Shown piece after piece: positions 8,952-48,620 of a DNA stretch of 64,000 nucleotides. The notes under the pieces were generated by a model, which saw only the letters and a program-made list of their open reading frames with translations, had not been told where the DNA came from and searched no databases. The stretch is taken from NCBI GenBank assembly GCA_964343575.1, contig CAYFJV010000001.1:410705-474704 (forward strand). The letters run 5' to 3'. Position 1 is the stretch's first letter; each line of letters begins with the position of its first letter. A program made the position numbers and the translations under genes. Origin of the DNA: an uncultured Methanosarcinales archaeon (GTDB lineage: Archaea > Nanobdellota > Nanobdellia > Woesearchaeales > GW2011-AR9).

Positions 8952-9033
8952 GAAAGAGTGCCCCTACAAGATCTGCAACCAAACTTTTTAGAGAAAAGTT
9001 TGATCAAAAACACAAGGGAAAGAGTGCCCCTAC
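8952..9033 (-). mobile_element. Hairpin cassette (8968-9017) flanked by a 16-bp duplication of the tRNA-Arg 3' end
   Basis: GAAAGAGTGCCCCTAC at 8952-8967 and 9018-9033; core CAAACTTTT..AAAAGTTTG. Confidence 0.6.
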
Positions 9034-9136
9034 CCGGATTTGAACCGGGGTTTCAAGCTCTTTGCATAGCAAAGCTCACAAAGCTTGCTTTATCTTACCG
9101 CAAGCTTGCGTCATATCCAAGCTAAACCATAGGGGC
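9025..9136 (-). tRNA. tRNA-Arg(GCG) with 38-nt 37/38 intron (9060-9097)
   Basis: Acceptor GCCCCTA/TAGGGGC, stem CAAGC/GCTTG, BHB central helix TTGC/GCAA, T loop TTCAAAT. Confidence 0.93.
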
Positions 9137-9204
9137 AAAGCTGCTCTTGTGGATTTCTGCTGCTTTATTAAGTTAACCACTAGAAATTGGGAAGAGGACC
9201 AATT

Positions 9205-10026
9205 TCACTTCTTTCTTCTGTGCTCTTTTTTAATTTCTGCGCCACCAGCAGGCAAAAAACTAATGATATCGTCTAGGTCTCCCCCTTTAAGCTGAGAACG
9301 AATCTTCTTTGCTAGCGCAGATTTTTTTTCTCTCCCGGGGATCACAGTGAGGTAGTTCTCTGTCTTAGCTTGCACTGCGCTTGGTGGTCCGCCAATGATC
9401 TGTTGACTTTGTGTCCCTTCCTTCTCTTCGCTTACTAAACCGATTGCATAAGAAACGCTTGGGTGCAGATAGGTGTTTTTTCCATAAACCATAAAGCTTC
9501 CTTTTGCGAGGTGCTCTCCGGACTGCGCTTCTTTTGTCACCTGCTCAGGTTTGACATAGAAAACATCTGCCGTGGCATGACCCAATTTCCAAGCTCGAGA
9601 ATATGCAGCGGTTGCCTGCGCAGCTTCTTCTTTACTTAGATCTCCTGCGCGCTGACCTTCTTTGATCACAAAGAAAGGACTTCCTGCCATATCGGTATGA
9701 AAGACAAGATCCTCTTTCTCAGTATGCTTTTTCACCACAATTTCGTTAGAGGTAGCATCCTTTCCTCCAACGCACAAAAATCCTTCACTTGTGAAGAACC
9801 AATGAAACTTTTCATACCACTCCTTTTTGCGGTTCTTCTTCTCTTGACGTTTTGCTTCTTGCTCTTGGAACTTTTCTTCTTGGCTAAGGAGCAGAGCTAG
9901 TTTTGTTTTACTCTCTTCAAGCGCCTTTTTTGCTCCTTCTAGCTTTTTCTTATTCTTCTTAGCAAGGTCAAAATAGCGCCCGGCATTTTCATCTACAGAC
10001 TTTTCAAGATAGATTTCAACTTTCAT
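9205..10026 (-). CDS. NFACT-R (DUF814) domain protein, short RqcH/NEMF-like
   Basis: WYEKFHWF, GGKDATSNE, FHTDMAGSP, SGEHLAKGSFMVYG. Confidence 0.88.
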   Translation of the reverse strand: MKVEIYLEKSVDENAGRYFDLAKKNKKKLEGAKKALEESKTKLALLLSQEEKFQEQEAKRQEKKNRKKEWYEKFHWFFTSEGFLCVGGKDATSNEIVVKKHTEKEDLVFHTDMAGSPFFVIKEGQRAGDLSKEEAAQATAAYSRAWKLGHATADVFYVKPEQVTKEAQSGEHLAKGSFMVYGKNTYLHPSVSYAIGLVSEEKEGTQSQQIIGGPPSAVQAKTENYLTVIPGREKKSALAKKIRSQLKGGDLDDIISFLPAGGAEIKKEHRRKK

Positions 10027-10076
10027 AACAGATAACAGTTTACTGAGAAGAGTCAAAGAAATAAAAATGCTTTGTT

Positions 10077-10340
10077 TTACTTTTGAGGGAAGGTGTGTTC
10101 TGTCCTGTAATCACTTATTAAATCTAATGGTGTCTGCTCACAGCGAGCATATAATTCAGTAATTCCTCCTCCAGAAGATGGACTTTCTATGTGGAGGAGA
10201 ACATCTCCATGTCCAGTGTGATAGATCCCAAACACGAGATGCTCGAGTACATCTCCCAGAACAGTAAAGCGGGCACGCTGCTGAGCAGTTAGAGTTGAAG
10301 GAACAGTTCTATCAAAAGTAGTGAGGTCTTCTAGCGGCAT
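10077..10340 (-). CDS. Hypothetical Lys-poor protein
   Basis: ORF from ATG 10340 downstream of a TATA-like element. Confidence 0.5.
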   Translation of the reverse strand: MPLEDLTTFDRTVPSTLTAQQRARFTVLGDVLEHLVFGIYHTGHGDVLLHIESPSSGGGITELYARCEQTPLDLISDYRTEHTFPQK

Positions 10341-10414
10341 ACGGGAGGGAAGTAAGAAAATTATAAAAAAGTTCGTAAGAAAAGTTAGGGGACGTGGGGT
10401 GTACGGAAGGAGAG

Positions 10415-10879
10415 CTAACAAGCTCGAATTTCATCACCCTCAAGGACCAAGGCTTGCTCAACACAGATCTCTTCTTCTTCAAGCACCTTTACTTTTGGGA
10501 TGATTTTTACTTGTCTCATCTCACCACTAAACTCTGGATTATAACCTAAATGGGTGAGATAATTTCCTGCTTTGTGCATTTGCGCATCTTCTAAATCAAA
10601 ACTTTCAGCACGCTCAGTACCAATGATATTCACTACCAAACCACTGACATCAAGATTTATTCCGTTTTCTACCACAAAATACAAGTCTTTTTTCTCATGA
10701 TCAAAACAAAGTTCAGGAAGACCTTCCACTTCAGAAAACTCTAGACCAATGTCAATGGTACAGTGTGATTCGAGGTCCACTTGTGCTCTTCCAAAGTTCA
10801 TGATCACCAAACCAACTGCTACTGCAAAAGAAATGAGTAAGAGCGTTGCAACTAGCGGAGCCATTCCTTTTTTTTTCAT
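10415..10879 (-). CDS. Archaeal type IV pilin-like protein
   Basis: Class III signal peptide MKKKG|MAPLVATLLLISFAVAVG. Confidence 0.85.
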   Translation of the reverse strand: MKKKGMAPLVATLLLISFAVAVGLVIMNFGRAQVDLESHCTIDIGLEFSEVEGLPELCFDHEKKDLYFVVENGINLDVSGLVVNIIGTERAESFDLEDAQMHKAGNYLTHLGYNPEFSGEMRQVKIIPKVKVLEEEEICVEQALVLEGDEIRAC

Positions 10880-10930
10880 AGTGCTCTTAAAGAGGTTTTT
10901 TTGTTATTTAAAGCTTTGTTACTCATTTAA

Positions 10931-11058
10931 GTGGCGCTTGCCAAGGCGGGGCCAGAAGAACTCCTGTCCGCCATTAGCTTTTCCTTAGCAGGAAAAGGGT
11001 TCCCAGGAGATTCGCTTCCTTCTTCTTAATTTTCCCAGCAATCAGGCAAGCGCGCCAC
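10931..11058. ncRNA. Unknown structured element, copy B
   Basis: Terminal pairing GTGGCGCTTGCC/GGCAAGCGCGCCAC; inverted homolog of 8378-8560. Confidence 0.65.
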
Positions 11059-11106
11059 TCATTCTTCAGGAGAAGGCATATAAAGCGCCCCTTTCTTCGT
11101 GCCATT

Positions 11107-11634
11107 ATGCCAGGAGAAATAAAGATGGGAGAGAATATCTTTTTGATCTCTCACTACCTTGAAGATTTTGAAACCTTCTTGAATGATGCTAAATTAATGG
11201 CAGTGCAAACAATACCCTTTGTCTCTGTTGGTGCGGTTCTGTTCAGAGAGCTTTCTGGAGAAAGGAAATTTCTTTTGATTAAACACAAAGAAAAATTTGG
11301 CGGGCATTGGGACTTTCCAAAAGGACATAGTGAAGTTGATGAGGAGCGTAAAGAGACTGCAAAACGTGAGGTTCTTGAGGAAACTGGCTTGCAAATTAAT
11401 GGTTTTGTTCTAGGCTTTTGTGAAGAAAGTGTGTATTACCCTCGTAATTTTTTATATGTACGCAAGAGTGTTTTTTTCTTTTTAGCAAAAGCAGGTGCTA
11501 GAGAAGAGGTAAAAATTGCTGAGAATGAGTTAGAAGACTTTGCTTGGCTTTCCTTTAGGGAGGCAAAAAAGAGGCTGACCTATCAGCGCAGCAAAGAGAT
11601 TCTTGAATCTGCAGAAGCTTTTATTAAGCGCTGA
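11107..11634 (+). CDS. NUDIX hydrolase (Ap4A hydrolase-like)
   Basis: HWDFPKGHSE...TAKREVLEETG Nudix box. Confidence 0.92.
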   Translation: MPGEIKMGENIFLISHYLEDFETFLNDAKLMAVQTIPFVSVGAVLFRELSGERKFLLIKHKEKFGGHWDFPKGHSEVDEERKETAKREVLEETGLQINGFVLGFCEESVYYPRNFLYVRKSVFFFLAKAGAREEVKIAENELEDFAWLSFREAKKRLTYQRSKEILESAEAFIKR

Positions 11635-12143
11635 TGTTTCTTCTTTTTATGGCATTCGCTGTTACCCATGTGATTGTAGCAATTGTGGTACTTGATTTCT
11701 TTCGTCACTATATCTTTGGAAAAGATGTTTTTCCTCGCTACCTTCTTGCAGTGGGAGGAATTGCTGGGCTTGCTCCTGATATTTACATCCCAATCAACAT
11801 TATCATTAATTGGTTTACAGGGTCCGAAGGTTTTTATGGACTCTTTTTTAGTCATTCTTTACTTGTAGTTTTGCTTTTCCTTCTTTTGGGGGCGCTTTTT
11901 CGTTACCTAGAGAAAGATACTTGGGAAAAAGTCTGCTATGTTATTGGAGCAGGAATCTTTATTCATCTCCTTTTAGATTGTTTCTTTGGTGGAGCAGGTA
12001 AAACTTTCTTTTGGCCAGTGAGTAATATTAGCTTTTGTCCTAGCTGGAGGCTTGCTGAACATGCCGCACGTATTGATGCTCTTATTTTAGTGCTTTGGAT
12101 CATTCATGAAGAAGTTCACGGCAAAATTAAGGATTATTTTTAG
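11634..12143 (+). CDS. Membrane metal-dependent hydrolase (YdjM-like)
   Basis: TH, LAPD, SHSL, HLLLD, FFWP motifs within TM helices. Confidence 0.8.
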   Translation: MFLLFMAFAVTHVIVAIVVLDFFRHYIFGKDVFPRYLLAVGGIAGLAPDIYIPINIIINWFTGSEGFYGLFFSHSLLVVLLFLLLGALFRYLEKDTWEKVCYVIGAGIFIHLLLDCFFGGAGKTFFWPVSNISFCPSWRLAEHAARIDALILVLWIIHEEVHGKIKDYF

Positions 12144-12262
12144 AGACTGGTTCTGTTGCTTCTAAAAGAGATTCAAATAGAGTCTGTCTTTAAAAAATTT
12201 CTAGGGAATAGAGAATCAGAATAAAATAAATTATGAAAAAAAGTTAAAAATAAAGCAAAAGT

Positions 12263-12871
12263 CTACTCTTCAGTAAACTCTTCAACCTTTACAGGTAACT
12301 CTTCATCTCCTCGAAGCATATTCTTTGCTTTCATATACTCACGAGTGATTAGATAAAGTACAAGGCCAACTGACTTCTTTCCTTTGTTGTTTACAGGAAC
12401 CACTAAATCAAGGTTGTTTGCTTCGTTGTTTGTATCACAAAGACCAACAAGAGGGATACCTGCTTTAAGTGCGTCCTTCACTGCGTTCTTATCTGGCCAA
12501 GGATCACAAACCATCATTACTTTTGGTTCAATAAAAGTATCAAGGTTGGTATTGGTCAAAATTCCTGGAGGATATCTCCCAGTGATCACATTGATCCCAG
12601 TAAGCTTCTTGAGATGCTTGAGTCCTTTCCAACCATTCTCACGGCGGCTTACAATCAAGATGTCTTTTGCTTCATAGTTTGCTAGAAACTTTGCAGCCAG
12701 AGCAATACGCTCATCAATTTTTTTGAGGTTCAATACACTCAGTCCATCTGGCCTGGTTTTGTAGATGAACTTTTCCATATATTTTGTCTTAAACTTGGTT
12801 CCAATGTGAACTCCTGCTTTGAGATACTCATTGGAGTCAATTAATAGATCTTCATGTTGTTCGGTTGTCAT
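12263..12871 (-). CDS. rps2: 30S ribosomal protein uS2
   Basis: YLKAGVHIGT, GRYPPGILTN, LCDTNN, PVNNKG. Confidence 0.97.
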   Translation of the reverse strand: MTTEQHEDLLIDSNEYLKAGVHIGTKFKTKYMEKFIYKTRPDGLSVLNLKKIDERIALAAKFLANYEAKDILIVSRRENGWKGLKHLKKLTGINVITGRYPPGILTNTNLDTFIEPKVMMVCDPWPDKNAVKDALKAGIPLVGLCDTNNEANNLDLVVPVNNKGKKSVGLVLYLITREYMKAKNMLRGDEELPVKVEEFTEE

Positions 12872-13068
12872 TTTTTATTCTCCACTATTGTTTATGTGTT
12901 AAAAGCTCAAAAATTGGAGTCAGAAGAGATATTTCTGACTGCGATTTTTTTTGCCTCACGCAGCTCCATAACCCCTACAACGAGGTTACTTCGGCTATGA
13001 ATTCCTTGGGTAAGAAGCACTTTATAAACTTATCGAGAATTTATCCAGATTAAGGTTGAAGAAAAAAG

Positions 13069-13302
13069 CTACTCCTCTTCTGATTCTAAGGATTCTTCTT
13101 CCTCAGCTTCATCAAGTTCTTCACTGAGCTCGGTTTCTTCTGGGAGCTCAGGCTCTTCTACTTCTTCAAGAACATCTGCTCCGGTTGCCGCCGCGGTTGC
13201 TCCTTCCTCAAAGCCGCTTAAAGAGTACAAAGAACTTGTTAAAGAGACTACAAAAGCTACTGCCAGAAGCGCCACCAATGTTTTGTTTGAAATATGTGCC
13301 AT
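13069..13302 (-). CDS. Small membrane-anchored acidic protein
   Basis: ISNKTL followed by a hydrophobic helix and a Glu-rich tail. Confidence 0.6.
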   Translation of the reverse strand: MAHISNKTLVALLAVAFVVSLTSSLYSLSGFEEGATAAATGADVLEEVEEPELPEETELSEELDEAEEEESLESEEE

Positions 13303-13724
13303 TATTGTTCTTCACCTGCCACTGCATCTTGCGAAGCAGATGCTTCTATGGATGCCCCTACTTCTTCAGCTAACTCTTCCTCAAGCTCATCAACATCCTC
13401 GCTTACTTCTTCAAGAAGTTCCTCTAGAGCGTCAATGTCATCTTGATAACTTTCAGAAGCACTAAGCTCTGAACTGGAAGTGATGAATAGGATGATGCTT
13501 ACTGTACTCACTAAAATTACAAGGACAAGCATGACAAGAACAATCCTATTAGAAAGATCCCGAGCACCAGTATTTCTCGGACTTTGTTTTTGATTAAGAG
13601 AAGATGTTCTTCGGGAAGGTGTCTTTTTGGTTTGCCTTTTCTTGGACCGCTTAGGTGAAGCTCTCTTAGAAGACTTCGCTTTTGCTCCTTTTGTTGCCTT
13701 TCTTTTCACCTTCCTTTTTGTCAC
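13302..13724 (-). CDS. Single-TM protein, basic N-terminus and acidic C-terminus
   Basis: GAGGTG RBS; LSNRIV followed by a TM helix, resembling the downstream gene. Confidence 0.65.
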   Translation of the reverse strand: MTKRKVKRKATKGAKAKSSKRASPKRSKKRQTKKTPSRRTSSLNQKQSPRNTGARDLSNRIVLVMLVLVILVSTVSIILFITSSSELSASESYQDDIDALEELLEEVSEDVDELEEELAEEVGASIEASASQDAVAGEEQ

Positions 13725-13756
13725 GACAGGTCCACCTCTTCACTTGAGATGAATGC

Positions 13757-14545
13757 TTAGAGATTTAAATAACTTTTGTTTTGCAAGTTAGCTGTTCCTC
13801 TCGCTTTTTTTTCTTGCTTCTCCTCACCATCTTGTCTTCCACCCCTCCCATTTTTCATGCTAAGCCCAGCTTGATTGATAGTAAAGGAGAGTTTTTTTCC
13901 AGGAGCCATATAACGATGTTTTCTCAAGATAAGTGAACGAAGTGTTGGGTTCTCTTCTTCATCTCTTTGTTCTTTTACCAACTCAATAAGACATTTACTC
14001 CCATACTTGAGTACATCTCCACCAACCATTTTTACTCGTTCTTTGTTATTGAAGTCAGCATAGACTTGATTGGTAATAAGCACCGGAATTTTCTTACTTC
14101 GAGCAATTTCTACCAATTGCGCGATCTGTCTTGCCAGAGCAGCATTAGTCTCAAAAACACTTTCTGCTTTTCCTAACTCTAAACGATAGAGCATAGAGAT
14201 AGAGTCAACTACAATCATTCCAATGTCAAGAGAAGAATTGACAAGCTGCTTAATACGCTCAAAAGATTCTTGCTGTTCTTTAAAGTTAAGTGGTTGAAGG
14301 AAGATGATCTCTTGAAGCACTTTCTGATAATCCTTACTTAACTGCTTGATGCGCTCAACAGCAATACCTCCTTCGGTATCAATGAGAAGAACTTTCTTTC
14401 CTTGCTCAGCAACTCTCACTGCAGCTAGCAGGCAAAGATTTGTTTTTCCGCTTCCTGAAGGACCATAAATAGTGGTAACAATATCTCTTTCATAGCCCCC
14501 ATCCAACTGTGCATCTAAGAAAGCAGCCCCCGTGCTTGTTTTCAT
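13757..14545 (-). CDS. radB: DNA repair protein RadB
   Basis: GPSGSGKT, IDTEGG, VVDSIS, ITNQVY, C-terminal KHR motif. Confidence 0.95.
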   Translation of the reverse strand: MKTSTGAAFLDAQLDGGYERDIVTTIYGPSGSGKTNLCLLAAVRVAEQGKKVLLIDTEGGIAVERIKQLSKDYQKVLQEIIFLQPLNFKEQQESFERIKQLVNSSLDIGMIVVDSISMLYRLELGKAESVFETNAALARQIAQLVEIARSKKIPVLITNQVYADFNNKERVKMVGGDVLKYGSKCLIELVKEQRDEEENPTLRSLILRKHRYMAPGKKLSFTINQAGLSMKNGRGGRQDGEEKQEKKARGTANLQNKSYLNL

Positions 14546-14661
14546 GAACTGGGATGATGGAGAAGATGCGATTTAAATATTTCTAAACAGGAGACCTGTC
14601 CAAAGAGAAGGTATGAGCCAAATGAAAGTATTATAAAGCAAAATAGCTTTTGTATTCCTTA

Positions 14662-16218
14662 ATGTTAGAGAGGAAACATTGGGTCTTGTTGGCTATTTTT
14701 TTAGGAAGCTTATCCCTACGCTTGTTTTTGGCTTTTAGCATTCCAAACTTTACTTATGATTCTTACTTCCACCTTCGGCAAGTAGAACAGATCATGACAA
14801 GTGGAGTTCCATTGTTTAGAGATCCTCTCTCTTATGGGGGCAGGGAATTAATCTTTCTCCCCCTTTTCCATTATGTCTCTGCAGGGTTAGCGCTGCTTTT
14901 TCCCTTGGAGATTGTTGCTAAAGTTCTCCCGAACTTGCTTTTTGCTCTTTTGAGTCTAGCTACTTTCTTTATTGCCGAGAGAATTAGTAAGAGAAAAAAC
15001 GCTGCACTCTTTGCAGCTTTGGTTACCGCACTTTTACCTGTCACTTTCCAGACCAACAGCTTTAGCCCTTTGCCTTTCGCGCTTTTGTTTGTCCTCTTAA
15101 GTATTTACTTTTTCATTGGACTGAGGCAAGGAAGGAATAGGGAAAGAAACACCTGGTTTTTTATCCTTAGCCTTCTTGCTCTTTTCTTTAGTAGCACACT
15201 TTCCTTTGTCCTCATTTTCGGTTTGCTCTTTTACGTTTTACTTGCAAATGTAGAAGAACAGAAAATACAAAAAAGAGAAAAAGAACTCATCTTTTTTGCA
15301 AGTGTTCTTTTTCTCTGGACCCAGTTCCTCTTCTTCAAAGAAGTCTTTCTTAGTTATGGCCTACAATTCATTAGAGGAAATATTCCTCCCCAGATTATCT
15401 TTGATTACTTTCCCCGGATCAGCTTAGTCGATGCCCTTCTCTTGGTAGGTGTAGTTCCTCTCCTTGGAGGAATGTTTTTTATCTACACTTCCATATTTGA
15501 AGAAAAGCGCCAGAGCCTTTTTCTTTTAGTAAGCTTTGCAATCGCTAGCATTCTTCTTACTGGACTTCGGCTCGTGCCTTTTGAAGTTGCCATCAGTTTT
15601 CTGGGACTCTTGTTTGCTATTCTTTTTTCATCTTTTTATGAACAGCTCCTCAGCTTCTATGAGAGGACACGTTTCAGTTCGCTTCATGGTAGCCTTGATA
15701 AAAAAATCAAGAAAAAAGCAAAGAGAATTAGTAGCAGGTTTAACTTTTCAAGCACAACGACATTACTTATCCTTATTGTTCTTCTCCCTAGCCTTCTCTT
15801 TCCAGCGTTGAGTGTTGCCCATGGCCAAGCAGTTCCGAGCGATGCAGAAGTAGCCTTCTTTCAAGGGATTGGAGAAAACACACGCTCAGGAGAGGTTGTT
15901 TTAACGGATGTTCAAGAAGGACATTTAGTGAGTTACCTCTCACAAAGAAAAAATGTTCTAGACAGTAACTTCCAGCTTATTGAAGATGTTGAAAATCGGG
16001 TTCAAGATCTGGGGACTATTTACTCTACCCCTTTCCAGACTCAAGCCGTAAAACTTCTAGAAAAATATGGTGTTGATTACATTGTGTTAAGCTCAAGCGC
16101 TAAGGAACGTTTTGGGAGGGAAAAGATTGAGAGTATAGATAACGAATGTTTTAAAGTACTTATTATTGAAAACGGTAATGAAGCTTACCATATTAATTGT
16201 GCATTGATCACAAGTTAG
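14662..16218 (+). CDS. GT-C fold (STT3/PMT-like) membrane glycosyltransferase
   Basis: YDSYFHLR loop after TM1, DPLSYGG, many TM helices, C-terminal KYGVDYIV domain. Confidence 0.65.
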   Translation: MLERKHWVLLAIFLGSLSLRLFLAFSIPNFTYDSYFHLRQVEQIMTSGVPLFRDPLSYGGRELIFLPLFHYVSAGLALLFPLEIVAKVLPNLLFALLSLATFFIAERISKRKNAALFAALVTALLPVTFQTNSFSPLPFALLFVLLSIYFFIGLRQGRNRERNTWFFILSLLALFFSSTLSFVLIFGLLFYVLLANVEEQKIQKREKELIFFASVLFLWTQFLFFKEVFLSYGLQFIRGNIPPQIIFDYFPRISLVDALLLVGVVPLLGGMFFIYTSIFEEKRQSLFLLVSFAIASILLTGLRLVPFEVAISFLGLLFAILFSSFYEQLLSFYERTRFSSLHGSLDKKIKKKAKRISSRFNFSSTTTLLILIVLLPSLLFPALSVAHGQAVPSDAEVAFFQGIGENTRSGEVVLTDVQEGHLVSYLSQRKNVLDSNFQLIEDVENRVQDLGTIYSTPFQTQAVKLLEKYGVDYIVLSSSAKERFGREKIESIDNECFKVLIIENGNEAYHINCALITS

Positions 16219-16274
16219 ATTAGTTGGATTATCCGAATGGTACAAAAATAGAGAGAAGAAGGAAGAAGAAAGAT

Positions 16275-17888: not shown

Positions 17889-17917
17889 AAGAGTAAAAAT
17901 TTGCTCGCTTAGGGAGA

Positions 17918-19189: not shown

Positions 19190-19192
19190 AGC

Positions 19193-39341: not shown

Positions 39342-39755
39342 TTAAATGATTTTGATCTCTTTCTCGAAATAGCGACGAGACATCTCATTGAGGAGACGCA
39401 AGTTCCTAGCATCGCGTCCTATTAATAAACTTTTTGTTTTTCTATTTGAATCTTTGATGATTATTTCTCCATCAATAACACTGATTTCTTCAACGCTCAA
39501 AGGGTAAATGCAGTTTTTTACGAACCTAGCAGGGTCTTTATTGAACTCAACAATTTTGATGCGCTTCTCGAAACGCTTTTGCGCCTTTTTAACATTTTCC
39601 GCTCCCTTACCAAGAGCCTTTTGAAACATACCAAAAGGGACCACAAAAAAAAGCGTATCCTCTGAAGAAAAACAGCCTTTCACAGGAACCCTTGCAATAC
39701 GCTCAAAAATGGAGGAGAAGGCAAATACTTGCGGATCTAATTTCACTCGTGACAT
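39342..39755 (-). CDS. nusA: Archaeal NusA (KH domains)
   Basis: ALGKGAENV, LIGRDARN; operon position. Confidence 0.9.
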   Translation of the reverse strand: MSRVKLDPQVFAFSSIFERIARVPVKGCFSSEDTLFFVVPFGMFQKALGKGAENVKKAQKRFEKRIKIVEFNKDPARFVKNCIYPLSVEEISVIDGEIIIKDSNRKTKSLLIGRDARNLRLLNEMSRRYFEKEIKII

Positions 39756-39819
39756 CTTGTATACTTCTTTTTTTCAAAAAGGATTATAATAATGTTTAAA
39801 TGTTTAAGGCCTGAAAAAA

Positions 39820-39846
39820 CTCTAAAGCGCAGTTTGCGCTTTTGAG
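39820..39846 (-). repeat. Intergenic hairpin resembling the tRNA-intron hairpin motif
   Basis: Minus strand CTCA-AAAGCGCA-AAC-TGCGCTTT-AGAG. Confidence 0.4.
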
Positions 39847-39866
39847 AATCTCTCTTCTAGCTCTTC

Positions 39867-40148
39867 TTACTCTGCTACTCCAACTACGGAGATAAAGAAA
39901 TTCTTCTTAGCAAGAACTCCAATCTCTTCGTTGTCTTGCTCCAAAGAAACCAGCTCAACCTCGCCGAGGTTAGCATAGTAATCAAGATCATCTCTCAAGG
40001 AAGGAGCAATGTTTTTTGCCATGAAAATTTTCTTTACTTTTCCAGCTTTCATCTGTTTGAGCACAGCATCTCTTCCAATTATAGCTTTACCACTCTGAAG
40101 AACCTGTTTCAATGCAGAAACGTTCTCATCAATTTTTTTCTTAGCCAT
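39867..40148 (-). CDS. rpl30e: 50S ribosomal protein eL30
   Basis: GKAIIG, IFMAKN; lies between rpoA2 and nusA. Confidence 0.9.
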   Translation of the reverse strand: MAKKKIDENVSALKQVLQSGKAIIGRDAVLKQMKAGKVKKIFMAKNIAPSLRDDLDYYANLGEVELVSLEQDNEEIGVLAKKNFFISVVGVAE

Positions 40149-40239
40149 TTTCTCTACTTCTTTAACTTAATTTTTCTTTCCTAAGGACCTGGGCTCTTTT
40201 TAATACTTTCTCTTAACAAGCAACAAGCCCCAAGTCAAA

Positions 40240-41385
40240 CTATTTCATCTTGGTCACTAGACCAGGAAGACCCGTTCCCAAAGGAACTGGTTGGTTAATC
40301 ATCACGTTCTCAACTACGGAGCGAAGGCGATCTTCTTCTCCACCAAGAGCAGCAGTTACAATGTGCTTTAGTGGGGTCTCGAAAGAAGACCTTGCAAGAA
40401 CTGAAGACTTTTCATTCACTACACCAAAACGAGTGATTCCTTTCACATCTCCATCAACACACATAATGTCGGCTACAAGCATAATATGACGAATATCAAT
40501 ATCAAGTCCCTGGGATTCAATTACTTTTCCAACCTCACGAATGATTGCTTCTCTTGCTGCTTCAATTCCCAAAACAGCATAAATTTCGTGAATATCATTA
40601 GATACAGTTCTCTGAGCATCAACTTCTTCTAAAAGCAAGATCTCTTTGAGGTTGGTTCCAGAGGTAAGCACTACAAATTTATCATCACGCTTTACTGGAA
40701 GAACCTGCTTGATACCTTTGATCCCACCGATCTTTACCTTCTTTACTTTTTCACGAATAGTATAAAGATCTTTTAGCTCTCCTGCCTTTCCACTTTTCAT
40801 AGAAAGGACAAAACCAGCCTCGGTCTTGTCAAGATTGAATCCTTTGAACTTTCCTTTAAGCGCCTTAAGCACCTCATCATGCGCAATGTGCATGTTCTCT
40901 AGAAGCTCAGAATCCAAGCTCACTTTGAGCTCCTGCTCCAAAATATTGATGGTAAGATCAGAGATAAGTTCTTCTAAAAGAGTAGATTTAATCTTTGCTG
41001 CAAATTCTTTTACTTTCTCAAGACTGTTGTGTGCATCTTTCAAATAGATCTCAGTCATTGGTGTTTTGATTAACTTTCGCGCATCAAAAATTTCAATGAT
41101 CCGTGGAAGACCCATGGTAACATTCATCTCTGCAATACCTGCGGAGTGAAAAGTGTTCAAAGTCATCTGTGTACCGGGCTCACCAATACTTTCTGCACTC
41201 ACCAGACCCACACATTCTCCTGGGTTTACCTTACTTGCTTCGTAAGCTGCCAGAACCTTTTCCATGATTTCTTGTGCTTCTTTCTTGGTTACAGAGGAAG
41301 GGAGTTGTTCTTCGACTTTAGCAAGTACTGCTGGAGTGAGTTTTTCTGCATAACCTTTGATTAAAGATGAGATTTCAGCTTTCAT
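40240..41385 (-). CDS. rpoA2: RNA polymerase subunit A''
   Basis: [36 protein letters not shown]. Confidence 0.98.
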
Positions 41386-43961
41386 TTTTTGTCACCTACA
41401 ACGGATTGGATAATCCCTTTGACATCCACTTCACCGTTTTTAGTTTTTGATACGTCAAGTCCGTCTTCACCAAACTTAAACTGTACAACACGCATAGATG
41501 CATCTCGCACTGTTGCGTCATACTCTACTTTTAGATCTTGCATTGCGTTAGAAAGTCTTCGATACAAGTATCCGGACTTTGGAGTTCTTAGAGCAGTATC
41601 CATCAGTGCATCTCTTCCTGTCATTGCTCCAAAGAAAAACTCGCTTGGGGTAAGTCCACTCTTGAAATTGTTTTTGATAAAACCGTGAGCCTTAGGAGTG
41701 ATGTCTCCTTTCTTGAAGTAAGAGAGAGTTCTTCCTTTGAATCCTTTCTCAATACGTTTCCCACGCAAAGCCTGCTGACCAACAACCGCAGTCATCTGCG
41801 CAATGTTAAGTACGTTACCACGAGCTCCGCTTCTTGCCATCACAAGTGCTGCATTCTCTTCGATTTGGTGCATTGCTACGTTTCCACCTTTGTTACGTGC
41901 TTTGTTCAATACTTCAATAAGTCTAAGTTCAAGCGTCTCACGAATACTTCTTCCAGGAAGTGCTTGAAGTTTTCCGTCATAAAAATCGTCAACAAGTTTT
42001 GCAGCTTGATCGGTTGATTCTTTAATGATGTTTTGGATCTCTTCTTCGCTTTGTGGCATCAAATCAAGGTCTCCAATACCAATAGAAAAACCTCGTCTTA
42101 GAAGTACTGCAATCCCAAGTTTGGAAATTCTTCCAAGTAACTCTGCAGTGAACTCTGGTCCGTAATCGGCGTAGATGTTTCGAAGCATTAATCCACTTTC
42201 TTCTCCCAAGTTTGCCTTATCCATAAGACCGCTCTTGAGCCATCCTTTGACAATCTTTACTTCGTTTCCACTTTTATCTTTTCCAAAGAAGGTAAAGTCA
42301 TCAGGTAAGAGCATAGAGAATACTTCTTTCCCATCAATCTTATCTTTCTTAGGCATACGTGAAAAATCTTCTAAACCACAAGAGTAAAGCAAATCGATTG
42401 CTTCGTTTCTGGTAAGCACAAGCTCTTTGGTAAGCAAGTAGTTCCCAGTAATGGAGTCGTGAATACATCCAACTACACTTAATCCATCTCTTGGACTAAT
42501 CAGTTGAGTTTGTACTAACATAAGAACTTCTGCTTCAGCCCTTGCTTCTTCGGTTTGCGGAACGTGTAAGTTCATCTCATCCCCATCAAAGTCTGCGTTA
42601 TATGGGTGACAAACACTTGGGTTAAGTCTGAAGGTTTTTCCAGGAAGTACACGAATCTTGTGACACATCATACTCATTCTATGCAAAGAAGGCTGACGGT
42701 TGAAGAGTGCAACATCTCCATCAATGAGGTGACGCTCAACTTTATATCCCACATCAATCTCTTCTAAGATCTCTTCCATGGTTTCTTCAGTGATAGTCTT
42801 TCTTCTTCCTTGAGGATTAATGACGTAGTTTGCCCCAGGATATTTTTTAGGACCATTCTTGATGAACTGGATGAGGTACTCTTTGTTCCACTCGGTTACT
42901 CGCTCAGGAACAGTCAGGTGCATTGCCATCTTCATTGGTACACCAACTTCGTTCATACTGATCATTGGATCTGGACTGATAACAGTACGCGCCGAGAAAT
43001 CAGTACGTTTCCCAGCCAAGTTATGCCTAATACGTCCTTCCTTACTTTTGATTCTTGCAGCAAGAGTCTTCAATACTTGCCCACCTCGGTGTCTTGCAGG
43101 AGGAAGCTGCGCTACTCCGTTATTGAAATAAGTAGTTACATGGTATTGTAATAAATCCCAAAGATCTTCAATGATAATCTCAGGAGCCCCTGCGTTAATG
43201 TTCTCAAAAAGACGCTGGTTAATTCTTACAACATCACCCAATTTGTGAGTCAGATCGTCCTCACTTCGCTCTCCGCTTTGCAAAGTAATACTTGGCCTCA
43301 TTGTCACCGGAGGAATAGCAAGAACAGTCAGTACAAGCCACTCTGGCCTCATCACTTCAGGATCAAAACCAAAAAGTGGAAGGTCTTCGTTAGAGATTCT
43401 TTCTAAACGAGCACGCACTTCAATTGGACTGAGTTTTTGTTCTCCTTCAAAGAAGGTGTAGGGTTTGTTAATCTTAACTGCTTCTTGTTTGGTTCCACAA
43501 TGAGGACATTTTCCTTTGTCCTTATACTTTTTAACATACTGCTTTACTCTTCGACGCTGCGCTTCTGGACCTTGCTGTTCACCTACTTGTTGCAATTCGC
43601 CAAGAACTCTTTTGATCTTTTCTTCAGGGATTTGTACCCTTCCACAACTTTTACAACAAGATCTAAGCAAGTCGTGCACATGCTTTACAAAAGAGATGTG
43701 AATCACCGGACGGGCAAGTTCAATGTGACCAAAGTGACCAAAAGATTCCTTCAGTCCCCCACCGTCAGTTTTACAACGAAGCCCGGGATCAATAACTCCT
43801 AAACGAATGTCCATAAGGCCACCATCTACAGGATATCCTTCACGATCGTAGAGCTCAGGAGTTACGATCTTTGCTACGGAAAGGTCAGTGATTTGTTTTG
43901 GAGAAAGAACTCCAAAAGAGATTGATTCAATTTTTTTGTGCACTTGTTGGTTTGACTTCAT
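41382..43961 (-). CDS. rpoA1: RNA polymerase subunit A'
   Basis: Catalytic [22 protein letters not shown]. Confidence 0.99.
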
Positions 43962-43987
43962 TGTAAATCCTCTGCAGTTCTCAATTG

Positions 43988-45793
43988 TTAGTATTTATTC
44001 TTCAAATGTAATTGTGGATAGACACCCATACTTCTAATCTCATCAAGTAAAAGTTTGAATGCATAACTCATCTCAACGTTGGACACTTCAGCAGAATCAC
44101 CGTGAAGGTGAGACATTGGAATTCCGCCACGCTTATAGTCGTAATATCCCACAAGACCAGAGCGCTCACAAATCGGAAGCACAGTCTTATCTGAATCAAA
44201 ACGCTCTTTAAGCAGGAGCGATGCTCCATGAGCAACAAAGGTATCCTTCTCCATCTCTCCAAGACGAAGACCTCCTTCTTTTGCCTTCCCTTCGGTAGGT
44301 TGACGAGTAAGAAGCTGGATTGGACCACGTGCCCTGGATTGCATTTTGTTTGCAACCATGTGCCTTAGTCTCAAGTAGTACATGTTTCCAACATAAATTC
44401 TAGCGATCATTTGCTTACCAGTAATTCCATCATAGAAGACTTCAGTCCCATCTTCACGAAAGCCAAGACCAGCAAGTTCTGCACGAAGAGCATCTTCCTT
44501 CTCAGAATCGAAAAGAGTTGCATCGACATAACGGGAAGCAAGAGCTCCCACTTTTGCTCCCACTAACTCAAGTAAATGGGAAACAGTCATACGGGAACTT
44601 ACTCCGTGCGGTGTAAAAATAAGATCAGGAGTGATTCCAGATGGTGAAAAAGGCAAATCAGTTGAAGGAATAAGTACACCAGTAACTCCTTTCTGTCCGT
44701 GACGAGAAGTAAACTTATCTCCAATCTCTGGGATTCTCTGACTTCGTAAACGTACTTGGATGAGTTTGTTTCCTTCTTCGTTTTCACTCAGCATAACAAA
44801 GTCAGCAACACCTTTCTCTCCATGCTTGAGCGCAATAGAACTTTCTCTTCGAGTAGCAACAGATAAGTTGTACTCATCAAGGCTGTTCAAAAAACGAGGA
44901 GGGCTTGTCTTTCCAATTACTACATCTCCTTCTTTTACTTGGGCTTCAAGATGTACAATCCCATCTCCTTCTAGGAAACGATAATCTTTCTCTGATCGAT
45001 AACCTTTAGCTTCCTTGTCAGGAACACCAAGTTCATCAGTAAGGCCACCACTATACCTCATGATCTCAGAGGAAACTGGCCGGAAGTAAGTACTTCGGGC
45101 AAGCCCGCGCTCGACAGAAGACTTGTTCAGAATTACTCCGTCCTCCATGTTGTATCCTTGGTAAGACATGATAGCAACAACCATGTTCTGTCCAGCAGGA
45201 TGCTGTGCGTATTTACTTACTTCATGAATTTTGGTTCTTACAATTGGATACTGAGGGTAGTGCTGCACATTAGTATCCATATCCATACGTAAGTGATAAT
45301 TTGCAGCATAAAAACCGATTGCCTGCTTCTGGTTCTTACTTCCAATAATCAGACGAGCTGACTGCGTGTAGTTCCCAAAAGGTACAAGAGCGGTTGTGAT
45401 TCCACAGATAGATCCCTGAGTGATTTCAAGGTGTGTGTGTGCTTCAGTTAACTCTTCTTCACTGTAAGCTACGAGAAGGTTTTCTTCTTCACCAGCATCA
45501 ATGTACTCAATTACTCCTTGGCGCACAAGATCTTGCCAAGAAATTTCTCCCGCTTTTAACTGCTCAATATGTTTCTTAGAAAGAAGAGCTTTTCCTTCTT
45601 TTACTAAAATTAGTGGACGAAGAGCCCGTCCCTCTTGGGAAAAGACAAGAACCTCATCAAACTCTTTGTTATAGTGTACAGAAACCTGCTCTGGCAAGTT
45701 CCCATTTCTTCTTTGATCACGAAAATTTTCTACAAAAGATTCTGCATCATCTACGGTACCAAGGAATTTTCCATCCAAATATATCTCTGCCAT
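43988..45793 (-). CDS. rpoB1: RNA polymerase subunit B'
   Basis: GYNMED, GDKFTSRHGQKG, GLRLGEME. Confidence 0.98.
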   Translation of the reverse strand: MAEIYLDGKFLGTVDDAESFVENFRDQRRNGNLPEQVSVHYNKEFDEVLVFSQEGRALRPLILVKEGKALLSKKHIEQLKAGEISWQDLVRQGVIEYIDAGEEENLLVAYSEEELTEAHTHLEITQGSICGITTALVPFGNYTQSARLIIGSKNQKQAIGFYAANYHLRMDMDTNVQHYPQYPIVRTKIHEVSKYAQHPAGQNMVVAIMSYQGYNMEDGVILNKSSVERGLARSTYFRPVSSEIMRYSGGLTDELGVPDKEAKGYRSEKDYRFLEGDGIVHLEAQVKEGDVVIGKTSPPRFLNSLDEYNLSVATRRESSIALKHGEKGVADFVMLSENEEGNKLIQVRLRSQRIPEIGDKFTSRHGQKGVTGVLIPSTDLPFSPSGITPDLIFTPHGVSSRMTVSHLLELVGAKVGALASRYVDATLFDSEKEDALRAELAGLGFREDGTEVFYDGITGKQMIARIYVGNMYYLRLRHMVANKMQSRARGPIQLLTRQPTEGKAKEGGLRLGEMEKDTFVAHGASLLLKERFDSDKTVLPICERSGLVGYYDYKRGGIPMSHLHGDSAEVSNVEMSYAFKLLLDEIRSMGVYPQLHLKNKY

Positions 45794-45813
45794 TCTGATT
45801 ACCTTAGCCTGAT

Positions 45814-47289
45814 TTATTCAGCTAATCTTACCCCCAAGTTAGCTATTCTTTGTACCAAGTCTTCTTGGTTTACTTTTTGTGAAATGGAACAGAGCATAGC
45901 AAGATTTTTCCTCAGGCCAATGTTTGTTCCTTCTGGAGTTTCAATTGGACACAACCTCCCAATATGGGTACAGTGCAGCTCCCTTGCCATAAAATTTTCT
46001 TGAGAGCTAGAAAGCGGACTGTTTACCTTTTGCAAATGTGAAAGCATTGCAAGGAAGTTTGCCCTATCCATTCTCTGAGCTACCCCTTGTCTTCCACCAA
46101 CCCATTCACCAGTTGCCATACTAGAATAGATCCTAGATGTAAGCAACTTGTCACGAATGATCACTTTGATAGAAGGCAACTTCCCACGCTTAATGATTCT
46201 CTGGAAGTTGTAAATAATATCACTTGAAAGGACTTTAAAGTTAACCCTAAAAAGATCAAGTAAAAGGTCACCGCTGAGACGAAGCCTCTTGTTCATGTAA
46301 TGATCTTTATCATCAAGCTGACGTTCTCCCCTTGCAACTTGTACAAACTTTTTGAGCATCTTACACAAGTTTCTTGCTTTAGTCTCTCTTGCAGACTTAT
46401 CCATCCCGAGATGTGGAAGTAAGAATCGGTCAACCATGTCACGAGTTCTCTCAACACGAATTTCTTTATTTTGAGTAATCCCGCTCTTTTTGGCAAGATA
46501 ATCAAGTGCTTCTTCCTGAGTCTTGATGTCTACAAACTCGAAAAGGTTCAAAAGAACTTCATCATAAACTTTTTCAGGAGAAATTGATTTCATGATCTCT
46601 TCATCTTTAAGCATACCAAGAGCCTTAAGCACAACCATAATAGGAACTGACTTTAATCGAGTGAAAGACATGTAGAAGAAACCATCTTTCTTGAGCTCAA
46701 ACTCATGAGGAATTTTATAAGACCCTGCAGCAGAAAACATTCTTCCCACAAAAGCTCCAGTGCGCGCTTTTTCAATGAGGAAATTATTTGCAGCAAGATC
46801 TTCAATGGTCACGAGAACCTTTTCAGTTCCGTTGATAATAAAGTATCCCCCTGGGTCAGTTGGATCTTCTCCTTTCTTGATCAATTCTTCTCGAGAAAGA
46901 CCATGTAAGTTACAATGTTTACTTCGAAGCATGATTGGCATTTTACCGATCTCAGCAACAAAGTTTTCACGTTGTACCTCATTAATATAAGAAGAAACCT
47001 CCAAGAAAATTGGAGCAGAATAAGAAATTTTTCGAAGACGAGCTTCACTTGGAAAGATTGGTCGTTTGCTCCCATCGGCTTCCACCACTTGTGGTTTTCC
47101 GACGGTGATCTTCCCAAAACGAATCTTGAAAGATTCGATGTTGTGTGGGATAATACTTGGCTCAACCTCTTTGTTTTCAGCGATTACTTCTTTGAGGCCA
47201 AGCTCAATAAAGTTATCAAAAGATTGAATGTTACTCTCGACAAATTTCTTGTCTTCAAAATATTTTTCGACTAAAACTGATTTATCCAT
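45814..47289 (-). CDS. rpoB2: RNA polymerase subunit B''
   Basis: GGYFIINGTE, NKRLRL, CPIETPEG. Confidence 0.98.
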   Translation of the reverse strand: MDKSVLVEKYFEDKKFVESNIQSFDNFIELGLKEVIAENKEVEPSIIPHNIESFKIRFGKITVGKPQVVEADGSKRPIFPSEARLRKISYSAPIFLEVSSYINEVQRENFVAEIGKMPIMLRSKHCNLHGLSREELIKKGEDPTDPGGYFIINGTEKVLVTIEDLAANNFLIEKARTGAFVGRMFSAAGSYKIPHEFELKKDGFFYMSFTRLKSVPIMVVLKALGMLKDEEIMKSISPEKVYDEVLLNLFEFVDIKTQEEALDYLAKKSGITQNKEIRVERTRDMVDRFLLPHLGMDKSARETKARNLCKMLKKFVQVARGERQLDDKDHYMNKRLRLSGDLLLDLFRVNFKVLSSDIIYNFQRIIKRGKLPSIKVIIRDKLLTSRIYSSMATGEWVGGRQGVAQRMDRANFLAMLSHLQKVNSPLSSSQENFMARELHCTHIGRLCPIETPEGTNIGLRKNLAMLCSISQKVNQEDLVQRIANLGVRLAE

Positions 47290-47357
47290 TTGCTTTGACC
47301 CCCAGCATGTATCATCTGGTATTCATTTTGATTTTCTTCCTCGAGAAAGCTGGAAAG

Positions 47358-47594
47358 CTAACTCTCGATTACTGCCCTATAATAAACTGCTTTCCCTGCA
47401 CTCCTACTCATTCGAACTACCTTAACCACATCCCCTGCCTTAGCATTAAGTGCAATAATTGCAGGATCTTCCTGTTTGATTTTTGGTAAGTGTTTTGTAG
47501 AAATACGCAGCTCTTCTAAGAGCGCGGTTTTTTCCTTCTCGCTAAGAAGGCTGTGCTCAGGCACAAGATTATGTTGTTGTTTTTCTGCAGCCAT
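47358..47594 (-). CDS. rpoH: RNA polymerase subunit H (Rpo5)
   Basis: HNLVPEH, LPKI..DP, YYRAV; start reassigned to MAAEK. Confidence 0.96.
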   Translation of the reverse strand: MAAEKQQHNLVPEHSLLSEKEKTALLEELRISTKHLPKIKQEDPAIIALNAKAGDVVKVVRMSRSAGKAVYYRAVIES

Positions 47595-47631
47595 TGTTTT
47601 TGTTTCCTTCGATTGTGACAGTGTTAAAGTG

Positions 47632-47715
47632 GCGGGCCGGAAGGCAACGAGAAAATTTACATTTTCTGAGCCTTCGTCCACTTCATCTCTTTTTGGGATG
47701 AAGCGGGCCGGAAGG
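47632..47715 (-). mobile_element. Hairpin cassette (47645-47702) flanked by a 13-bp duplication of the tRNA-Lys 3' end
   Basis: GCGGGCCGGAAGG at 47632-47644 and 47703-47715; hairpin AGAAAAT-TTAC-ATTTTCT. Confidence 0.55.
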
Positions 47716-47777
47716 GATTTGAACCCTCGACCGCTTGATTAAAAGTCAAGCGCTCTACCAAGCTAAGCTACCGGCCC
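47704..47777 (-). tRNA. tRNA-Lys(TTT), intronless
   Basis: GGGCCGG/CCGGCCC; CTTGA-CT-TTT-AA-TCAAG; TTCAAAT. Confidence 0.97.
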
Positions 47778-47810
47778 GTGACGCCCCTCAATCCGAATTA
47801 AGGAGCAAAG

Positions 47811-47929
47811 CGCCCTGGCCGGGAATCGAACCCGGGTCGGAGCCTTTCAACGGAGGCGAAAGGTTCAGAAACCTTTTGGTTTCTCGCCACCTCGACAGGG
47901 CTCCATGATAACCACTACACCACCAAGGC
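47811..47929 (-). tRNA. tRNA-Asp(GTC) with 47-nt intron (47846-47892)
   Basis: GCCTTGG/CCAGGGC with G73; GAGCC/GGCTC; T loop TTCGATT. Confidence 0.93.
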
Positions 47930-48124
47930 ACCACTCTGCAGAGCTGACTCTATTTCGTATTTTCACGTCCTAGAATGCTGACCCTGCCACTTTCGCCTTA
48001 AGACAGGTGCCCCTTTATAAAGCTTTCGGGAAAAGAAGCTTAATTTTGCCTTGTTCCTGTAATTTTAGGGATTGATTTTGGAAAAATAGGGCTTATTTTT
48101 TTACAAAAAAGTAGAGTTAAAAAG

Positions 48125-48212
48125 GAAAAAGAGTCCCCCACCAGATCTGCAACCAAGTTTTTTGTAAAAAACATTGACTAAAAACAAAGATAAGAAAAAG
48201 AGTCCCCCCACC
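48125..48212 (-). mobile_element. Hairpin cassette (48143-48193) flanked by an ~18-bp duplication of the tRNA-Tyr 3' end
   Basis: GAAAAAGAGTCCCCC(C)ACC at 48125-48142 and 48194-48212; AGATCTGCAACCAA end shared with the tRNA-Arg copy. Confidence 0.6.
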
Positions 48213-48329
48213 CGGATTTGAACCGGGGATCTCCCGGTGACTATTGGCTGATTTTTTCTCATCCTAGCCGAATTGGCCTGTCAAAAAAACATCTACAGCC
48301 GGGCGTTCTAGCCACTAAACTATGGAGGG
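48203..48329 (-). tRNA. tRNA-Tyr(GTA) with 54-nt intron (48239-48292)
   Basis: Archaeal-type C1:G72 with A73; CCCGG/CCGGG; BHB helix CTGT/ATAG. Confidence 0.94.
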
Positions 48330-48340
48330 ATCAATGAAAG

Positions 48341-48442
48341 TGCGGCAGCCGAGATTCGAACTCGGGTCACAGCCTCTTTGCACAGATGCAAGAGACCTGA
48401 TTGTATGGCAAGGCCGTATAATAACCACTATACTACTGCCGC
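48341..48442 (-). tRNA. tRNA-Gly(GCC) with 30-nt intron (48376-48405)
   Basis: GCGGCAG/CTGCCGC; CGGCC/GGCTG; BHB helix TTGC/GCAA. Confidence 0.94.
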
Positions 48443-48541
48443 ATTGCCTAGCGCCTTTATCTTCTAATCTGCTTATTAATTTTTTGGTTTGTTTGGTCTT
48501 GCGAAAAACATTGAAAACAGGAAAAATAAAGAGGAAAAGAA

Positions 48542-48620
48542 AAAAGTGGGTCTGGTGGGTATGCAACCAAACTTTTAGAAAAAGTTTGATCAAAACAAGG
48601 TTAAAAGTGGGTCTGGTGGG
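48542..48620 (-). mobile_element. Hairpin cassette (48560-48602) flanked by an 18-bp duplication of the tRNA-Ile 3' end
   Basis: AAAAGTGGGTCTGGTGGG at 48542-48559 and 48603-48620; TGCAACCAAACTTTT..AAAAGTTTGATCAAAA. Confidence 0.6.

Follow-up and report, generated by a model that had tools for sequence, protein, structure and literature searches.

A palindromic mini-element behind tRNA genes of small archaeal genomes, bracketed by copies of the tRNA 3' end and possibly spread by template switching

The stretch of DNA described here (hereafter the window) comprises 64,000 nt, C1:410705-474704 of the archaeal genome assembly GCA_964343575.1, and carries tRNA genes that are followed by a short palindromic insert, the cassette, and by a second copy of the tRNA gene's own 3' end. 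Positions are those of the window unless contig C1 or C2 of the host genome is specified. The host genome (G000) is 1.21 Mb long, in 6 contigs, with 39.6% G+C and a completeness of 95%; the other G labels designate genomes of relatives and the L labels individual loci. The Rfam tRNA model finds seven tRNA genes in the window, of which six carry introns of 30-54 nt. Because of these introns ARAGORN reports tRNA-Lys alone under default settings; all seven are recovered once introns are allowed. At four of the genes the features listed below were found.

9024..9136 (C1:419728-419840), minus strand: tRNA-Arg(GCG), intact, with a 38-nt intron; its 3' end is the first copy (ARAGORN with introns allowed; Rfam tRNA 46.5 bits)
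9018..9033, minus strand: Arg first copy, 16 bp, made of the last T-stem base, the 3' strand of the acceptor stem, the discriminator and 6 nt of trailer
8968..9017, minus strand: Arg cassette, 50 bp, with T run, GATC, 9-bp palindromic hairpin and GGTTGCAGATCTT (R1 covariance model 61.7 bits; hairpin fold)
8952..8967, minus strand: Arg second copy, 16 bp, identical to the first (repeat test)
47703..47777, minus strand: tRNA-Lys(TTT), no intron (ARAGORN, Rfam)
47645..47702, minus strand: Lys insert, 58 bp, two hairpins, unalignable with the family and single-copy in the genome
47703-47715 (first) and 47632..47644 (second), minus strand: Lys copies, 13 bp, identical (repeat test)
48202..48329, minus strand: tRNA-Tyr(GTA), 54-nt intron (Rfam; ARAGORN with introns allowed)
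48143..48193, minus strand: Tyr cassette, 51 bp, same family as the Arg cassette, with a C-G to G-C swap in the stem (R1 65.2 bits)
48194-48212 (first, with one extra C) and 48125..48142 (second), minus strand: Tyr copies, 18/19 bp (repeat test)
48607..48734, minus strand: tRNA-Ile(TAT), 52-nt intron (Rfam; ARAGORN with introns allowed)
48560..48602, minus strand: Ile cassette, 43 bp, same family (R1 50.7 bits)
48603-48620 (first) and 48542..48559 (second), minus strand: Ile copies, 18 bp, identical (repeat test)

On the tRNA strand the order is the same at all four sites: the complete tRNA with a few trailer bases, the 43-58 bp insert, and the tail again, the second copy consisting of the last 10-14 bases of the tRNA plus the trailer. 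A preliminary description of the window had reported this arrangement at Arg(GCG), Lys, Tyr and Ile, and all four repeats were reproduced. To place them in the context of the genome, self-repeats of at least 13 bp were searched within 250 nt downstream of the 33 tRNA genes called by ARAGORN and Rfam. Such a repeat is present behind 6 of the 33 (Arg(GCG), Lys, Tyr, Ile(TAT), Trp(CCA) and Cys) and absent behind 27. As a control, a repeat of at least 13 bp occurs in 73 of 20,000 random 280-nt segments of the genome, which corresponds to 0.12 expected among 33 tRNA ends (binomial P 2.4e-9 for the 6 observed). These data demonstrate that the four-site pattern is real and not due to chance, and the scan of all host tRNAs that the preliminary description had suggested thus came out in its favour. 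Behind tRNA-Trp(CCA) (L001, C2:12345-12503), which has a TTCGAAT loop and an encoded CCA, two cassettes stand in tandem with three tail copies, the middle one being partial. Behind tRNA-Cys (L002, C2:171541-171609) a 13-bp tail repeat lies 56 bp downstream, and the intervening sequence contains a 10-N assembly gap that may hold a larger insertion; none of the small contigs matched this gap, and one of them merely overlaps the ends of both large contigs.

The Arg, Tyr and Ile inserts, previously considered homologous, can be aligned over their whole length not only with one another but also with the two inserts behind tRNA-Trp (Trp-1 and Trp-2), and the five therefore form one homologous family. 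In layout, CTTG and a T run precede GATCA, which is followed by an A/T-rich hairpin of 9 bp and then by TGGTT with some further bases; the core of the element reads T run, GATCAAAC-TTTT, short loop, AAAA-GTTTG, GGTT. The arms of the palindrome, 9-14 nt long, could be read as two abutting inverted repeats, and on the tRNA strand G-U pairs lengthen the stem. The exchange of C and G on both arms of the Tyr copy, also reported previously, is correct when read directly from the sequence (G-C in the Tyr stem, C-G in the other cassettes); it is missing from the RNAalifold table as MAFFT misaligned the Tyr stem. A covariance model built from the five host cassettes (R1) recovered just its five source cassettes in the host genome at E<0.1. 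By contrast, the Lys insert, which had been described as having the same layout, could not be aligned with the cassettes and has no second copy in the host genome: it represents an independent event, alike in general kind, in which the inserted sequence is unrelated. Rfam searches matched neither the cassette nor the archaeal and bacterial loci of its core motif to any family, and literature searches, including the core as a word, returned no description of the family or of its movement.

We then asked how the family is distributed among relatives. R1 has matches in 49 of 61 related genomes at E<=1. Outside the host genome it gave 30 matches at E<0.01, of which 29 were examined, the one left out lying in G055 contig 47. 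Thirteen of the 29 are located in the 3' flank of a tRNA gene, all 13 in the direction of the tRNA and 9 of them with an exact flanking repeat of at least 15 bp. Three are inside tRNA introns (placed by eye, as ARAGORN does not call these multi-intron genes), all inverted: two at the canonical position in Ser tRNAs and one in a T-loop intron. Two directly adjoin the 3' end of the RNase P RNA, inverted, in two different genera (L012 in G020, L017 in G011), one abuts the 5' end of a tRNA-Val, one lies ~150 nt behind a tRNA, and nine have no RNA gene nearby, some of these resembling chance matches in coding sequence. Copies in canonical and T-loop introns of relatives were found at L006, L052, L078, L089, L119 and L133. 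The covariance search proposed in the preliminary description thus shows the expected enrichment at tRNAs, and its tRNA-homing proposal holds as far as this enrichment goes; it does not cover the copies located in introns, next to tRNA 5' ends, behind the RNase P RNA gene and at non-tRNA sites. The family is multi-copy, strongly associated with tRNA and other stable-RNA genes, and widespread in small DPANN-type archaea.

Occupancy differs even within the genus. In G001, which belongs to the same genus and has a syntenic tRNA cluster, 4 of 6 comparable tRNAs differ from the host: Tyr is filled in the host, whereas the G001 site is empty, with a G+C hairpin and a T run in place of the cassette; Arg(TCG), labelled by ARAGORN as Met with an intron but with an anticodon loop reading CTTCGGA, and Gly(TCC) are empty in the host and filled in G001; and Ile(TAT) is filled in the host, while G001 has no cassette there and carries a 41-nt hairpin-forming intervening sequence inside the T loop (L035, G001 C9 reverse strand ~222-365), at the place where the host duplication starts. 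Arg(GCG) and Trp are filled in both. As occupancy differs between two species of one genus, the element turns over. A search of metagenome contigs for the predicted empty Ile junction gave 0 matches; a subfamily pattern found 16 loci in such contigs, none from the same species and a few with the same architecture. Taken together, the shared gene-less cassette, the tRNA-specific duplications, the turnover at genus level and the enrichment at tRNAs argue for a non-autonomous element that spreads by copies rather than for a set of attachment-site (att) scars, and to this extent the earlier reading of a tRNA-homing non-autonomous element is partly supported.

The target duplication is variable in length and leaves the tRNA gene intact. 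It measures 13-18/19 bp in the window, 21 bp in G001, 15, 21, 22, 23 and 30 bp in G027, and 21 and 24 bp in G051. Longer ones exist: the repeated unit is 40 bp long in G031, non-tRNA sites of G065 have an exact duplication of 44 bp and a diverged one of ~47 bp, and one relative's locus has a flanking repeat of at least 60 bp. N cassettes are always accompanied by N+1 target copies (Trp, L008, L056). The right ends of the cassettes are common within a genome and different between genomes: GGTTGCAGATCT at host Arg and Tyr, GGTTCTGAATCC at three G051 tRNAs, GGTTCCCG in G027 and GGTTACAGATTGT in G001. All are T-loop-like, so that the resemblance of the cassette end to a T arm, pointed out earlier, is real. 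Moreover, in 14 of 14 cases, counted by eye and not by script, the exact repeat starts as far from GGTT as it does in the T arm of the tRNA itself, to within 0 to +2 nt, and in young copies (L005, L014, L056) the second copy begins within the T loop itself. On its left, the cassette adjoins the T-rich trailer without a sharp boundary. From the genome-specific right ends and the in-register second copies we infer that existing copies serve as templates for new ones; the T-loop-like right end more plausibly represents a T-loop copy carried over from earlier targets.

The core of the element is not restricted to these archaea. An IUPAC pattern of the core matches at least 132 loci in species-representative genomes (L061-L192). 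With taxa taken from record titles, the archaeal sources among the matches listed are Methanosarcinales, Methanocellales, Methanomicrobiales, Methanobrevibacter, Micrarchaeota, Iainarchaeum, Altiarchaeota, Woesearchaeota and Nanobdellota, and the bacterial sources among them include many Clostridia, Aminicenantes, Anaerolineae and Cloacimonadota, cultured isolates included. Five genomes (G061-G065) contain 447, 95, 37, 45 and 5 copies, the 447 being those of one Aminicenantes genome, and 0 of the reversed pattern. The core also matches 21 loci in viral contigs (L240-L260); when a bacterial copy was used as a BLAST query, plasmids gave one partial match, at which there is no feature, and phages none. 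Among the matches listed, 7 of 40 archaeal copies lie in or adjoin tRNAs, four of them in canonical introns and all four inverted, whereas 0 of 105 bacterial copies lie within 60 nt of a tRNA; flanking repeats of at least 16 bp accompany only 4 of 80 bacterial copies. The tRNA-linked duplication habit is therefore archaeal. No known family or enzyme accounts for the conservation of the core across domains. In Methanosarcina (L205-L212 in G064, and L161) the core occurs in tandem arrays with a period of 55-83 bp and up to 5 copies, superficially resembling CRISPR, yet with 'spacers' that are interrelated.

How might such an element be copied? The reading that we prefer, with a probability of roughly 0.4, is that the cassette is a gene-less palindromic mini-element whose new copies would be made from existing ones by homology-guided template switching. 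After copying a tRNA gene together with its T-rich trailer, a growing strand would jump to the T run of a cassette elsewhere and copy the hairpin together with a few bases of the pseudo-T-loop behind it. The growing strand would then drop off at or after the hairpin and re-anneal at the T loop (GGTTC) of the original tRNA gene, so that the stretch from T loop to trailer would be copied twice. Two homology-guided switches during DNA synthesis would suffice, and an element-encoded enzyme would not be needed. tRNA genes would be targeted because each offers GGTTC and, 20-35 nt later, a T run; N cassettes with N+1 tails would be the expected outcome of such a process. Templated insertion from elsewhere with duplication of the flank, short-homology junctions and no dedicated enzyme are features of fork stalling and template switching/microhomology-mediated break-induced replication (FoSTeS/MMBIR) and of quasipalindrome mutations. 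However, such events are sporadic, whereas here one hairpin would act as recurrent donor and tRNA genes as recurrent recipients, giving a self-propagating family.

Several observations weigh against this model. Across DPANN archaea, methanogens, several bacterial phyla and phages the core (27-30 nt) has almost the same sequence, and its two free purine/pyrimidine stem pairs are complementary in 143 of the 145 matches listed, with 25% expected by chance: a conserved core and a compensatory stem point to a sequence-specific factor, of which a passive model has no need. The GGTT microhomology is absent at the right junction of the copy at the tRNA-Ser(GGA) 5' end and at L213 and L215. At the left, the fuzzy edge of the cassette means that the switch point in the T run cannot be mapped. 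The T-arm register is a count by eye, no pair of empty and filled sites is close enough for an exact reading of the junctions, and the mechanism as a whole is deduced from end products only. Finally, the host genome has 8 matches to tyrosine recombinases (PF00589), 0 of them in the window, and the transposase search covered only a handful of families.

Several of these points also speak for the main rival explanation, in which a dedicated trans-acting enzyme cuts the two target strands 13-45 nt apart and gap filling duplicates the target. The enzyme could be a palindrome-recognising nuclease, a recombinase or a primase-polymerase, and may be encoded elsewhere in the genome, in a virus or on a plasmid. 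We consider this possible but somewhat doubtful. It would account for the core palindrome being conserved across domains with covariation of the stem, for the strict orientation (13 of 13 copies in 3' flanks directed with the tRNA, all intron copies inverted), for insertions lacking the GGTT microhomology and for the motif in viral contigs, and the eight tyrosine-recombinase matches in a 1.2-Mb genome offer candidates. However, a transpososome fixes the length of the target duplication, casposon duplications for instance converging on 14 bp according to PMC4150552, and here this length varies three-fold or more, unlike that of any transpososome in that account. Neither are the fuzzy element ends, which contain parts of previous targets that keep the T-arm register, what a cutting enzyme would leave.

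In addition, none of the enzyme families searched was found in the host genome as a plausible mover. Y1_Tnp (PF01797) has no match in the host genome or in G065, and TnpB, DDE_Tnp_1 (PF01609) and rve (PF00665) have none in the host genome, the last two being the DDE families covered by the search. In a copy-rich bacterium that does have Y1 transposase genes, the core motif does not flank them. The best score of the integron integrase model TIGR02249 in the host genome was 108 bits, below the cut-off of 265, as was also the case for all 14 controls. Integron attC sites have the R''/R' core-site consensus RYYYAAC and GTTRRRY. The ATCAAAC and GTTTGGT of the cassette are each one base off this consensus, and the cassette stem is too short for two binding boxes. 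The Ssn nuclease family with its NTS/SRM hairpin repeats, as defined in PMC11893778, relies on a small single-domain GIY-YIG nuclease; in the five genomes searched no such nuclease was found, GIY-YIG (PF01541) matching only open reading frames of 522-645 aa in 4 of the 5, with a 542-aa frame as the sole match in the host.

The cassette also differs from the small elements that such enzymes are known to mobilise. MITEs (miniature transposable elements with inverted repeats), repetitive extragenic palindromic sequences (REPs) and bacterial interspersed mosaic elements are likewise small, gene-less, multi-copy, hairpin-forming and mostly intergenic. However, MITE insertions come with a short target duplication of constant length and depend on a cognate transposase, whereas the duplication here is long and variable; REPs have no duplication and depend on a Y1 transposase (REP-associated tyrosine transposase, RAYT), whereas here duplications are present and Y1 was not found in the host. 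IS200/IS605 elements similarly insert without target duplication. A large MITE census describes MITE families as taxon-specific (PMC11602168), in contrast to the present core, which crosses domains.

A third explanation is that the cassette is mainly a functional module kept by selection and not currently mobile, as a terminator joined to a promoter containing TATA-like and transcription factor B recognition element (BRE)-like sequences or as a structure of the pre-tRNA trailer, the duplications arising from hairpin-induced repair. The left end and the stem both contain T runs, and the left end gives a run of T4-T5 directly behind the tRNA. A T run is an archaeal termination signal. Host tRNA promoters contain AAANCTTTAWAWA ~40 nt upstream of the gene, and the palindrome of the cassette resembles two such promoters placed back to back. 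On the preferred reading, too, the cassette likely supplies, as side effects, a terminator-like T run and a BRE/TATA-like palindrome. At C1:489764-489850, outside the window, an inverted cassette lies between two copies of the first 18-19 nt of the sole tRNA-Ser(GGA), with its palindrome 48 to 25 nt upstream of the intact gene; given this promoter-like distance, the inverted cassette may now serve as the promoter of that gene. The copies at the RNase P RNA 3' end in two genera and the extension of the stem through G-U pairs on the tRNA strand would also suit a selected module. However, occupancy differs at 4 of 6 comparable tRNAs in one genus and 27 of the 33 host tRNAs do without a cassette; the Arg copy faces the end of a convergent gene, leaving nothing for a forward promoter to drive, and copies that abut tRNA 5' ends place the palindrome ~14 nt upstream, too near for a promoter. 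We regard a selected module as a distinctly unlikely explanation.

Retroposition, in which an RNA copy ending in an A run would be reverse-transcribed from a nick in the trailer, with a variable cut of the second strand, would make the cassette comparable to short interspersed elements (SINEs). SINEs are also non-coding, with a homopolymer run at one end, variable duplications and polar insertion, and the cassette shares the T run at one end only, the long variable duplications and the polar orientation. SINEs require a reverse transcriptase. The reverse transcriptase family RVT_1 (PF00078) is present in 17 of the 61 relatives, including G001, G027 and G051, which have young copies. Nevertheless, the host genome yielded no RVT_1 candidate despite at least five copies with perfect repeats, nor did G007, G029, G031 and G036, all of which carry strong copies. 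As the register of the right junction with the target's T arm is also not predicted by such a route, we regard it as improbable.

Slightly further down the scale we place the possibility, raised in the preliminary description, that the repeats are attL/attR scars of tyrosine-integrase elements that have lost their interior, or decoy att sites. tRNA 3' ends are classic integration sites at which partial tRNA copies are left behind, and the arrangement described in PMC9897764, an intact tRNA, an insert and a partial 3' copy after a diverged T-loop-like stretch, is close to the present one; tyrosine recombinases do exist in the host genome, and the gap between the two Cys copies could be accommodated. 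However, the inserts of such elements are 9-23 kb long, compared with 43-58 bp here with no adjacent integrase, and no integrase match lies in the window. A tyrosine-integrase element carries one fixed tRNA fragment and has one target, whereas here one family occupies Arg, Tyr, Ile and Trp: the same 45-bp interior occurs at at least five different tRNAs in the host and in other genera, with its own tRNA-specific repeats at each site. A search for long versions having the cassette halves as ends gave only chance-level half-site matches in the host genome.

The target duplication of casposons can cover the 3' end of a tRNA gene. The analogy favoured earlier was that of a casposase-like integrase (Cas1) that would read the T arm and produce duplications of 14-15 bp, and the four duplications of the window, at tRNA 3' ends and 13-18 bp long, are indeed of this order; the palindrome could also correspond to the palindromic or inverted ends of casposons. 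However, the cassette has no coding capacity, Cas1 (PF01867) was found in 0 of the 61 genomes, the host included, by a search that was positive in 7 of 14 known genomes used as control, and across the family the duplications extend from 13 to ~44 bp, with at least 60 bp at one locus. Among the other enzymes that the preliminary description had proposed to look for, Y1 and RVT_1 are without a match in the host. The preliminary description had also noted that all four targets have a TTCAAAT T loop. The cassette-free tRNAs of the window serve as comparison.

47810..47929, minus strand: tRNA-Asp(GTC), cassette-free (Rfam; ARAGORN with introns allowed; repeat test)
48340..48442, minus strand: tRNA-Gly(GCC), cassette-free (Rfam; ARAGORN with introns allowed; repeat test)
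2772..2897, plus strand: tRNA-Ser(TGA), TTCAAAT loop, cassette-free (Rfam; ARAGORN with introns allowed; repeat test)

The rule holds inside the window but not genome-wide, where 4 of 15 tRNAs with TTCAAAT carry a repeat compared with 2 of 18 with other loops (Fisher P 0.37), the two being Trp (TTCGAAT) and Cys (TTCGAGT). Among the carriers in relatives there are tRNAs with TTCGAAT, TTCGAAC, TTCGAGC and TTCAACT loops. There is thus no preference for a T-loop sequence, and a Cas1 integrase is a very improbable source of the duplications. Least probable of all, and practically to be set aside, is an assembly artefact: this is a draft genome and one of the six sites (Cys) holds a 10-N gap, but the same architecture with different sequences recurs in many independently assembled genomes and the core motif in genomes of cultured isolates. 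One run of public reads, with 5% of the sampled words, matched only tRNA exons of other organisms at 80% likeness and bears on neither assembly nor polymorphism.

The element also has a bearing on the origin of archaeal tRNA introns and fragments, which is an open question. Transposed bulge-helix-bulge (BHB) introns of archaeal tRNA genes have been described (Fujishima et al. 2010, as cited in PMC10714607 and bioRxiv 10.64898/2026.10.13.758758), and there too related short sequences recur in different tRNA genes. However, BHB introns interrupt the mature tRNA, whereas the copies of the window follow complete tRNAs, do not have to be spliced and come with duplications, and the copies found in introns are inverted. 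A 2026 preprint on Asgard archaea tested copying, mobile elements and reverse transcription and reports no general route. The present family is one short sequence in three states: behind tRNAs, where it is harmless, at tRNA 5' ends, and inside canonical and T-loop introns. The contrast at Ile(TAT), with the element behind the gene in the host and an insert in the T loop in G001, makes the origin of such interruptions testable by comparative genomics. Should the element really move without a transposase, repeats in very small genomes would have a new means of spreading. A more far-reaching version of template switching would be that an enzyme-free hairpin hijacks replication template switching at tRNA genes through T-run/T-loop microhomology, that its copies feed new canonical and T-loop introns and act as portable promoters and terminators in DPANN archaea, and that the core, which Methanosarcina also carries, is a cross-domain module of methanogens, bacteria and phages; in this full extent we consider it unlikely.

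Three minor observations concern the host genome. Reverse-complemented, the start of contig C4 equals that of C2 and the end of C4 that of C1, so that C4 probably bridges the two large contigs. An entire tRNA gene with an intron (C1:212105-212205), whose ends are nearly identical to those of the tRNA-Ser(TGA) of the window, is enclosed by a direct repeat of 14 bp at C1:212085-212306; this repeat may be due to chance or represent a duplicated tRNA unit. At C1:476218-476300, just past the end of the window, a 17-bp direct repeat surrounds a T-rich insert of 49 bp.

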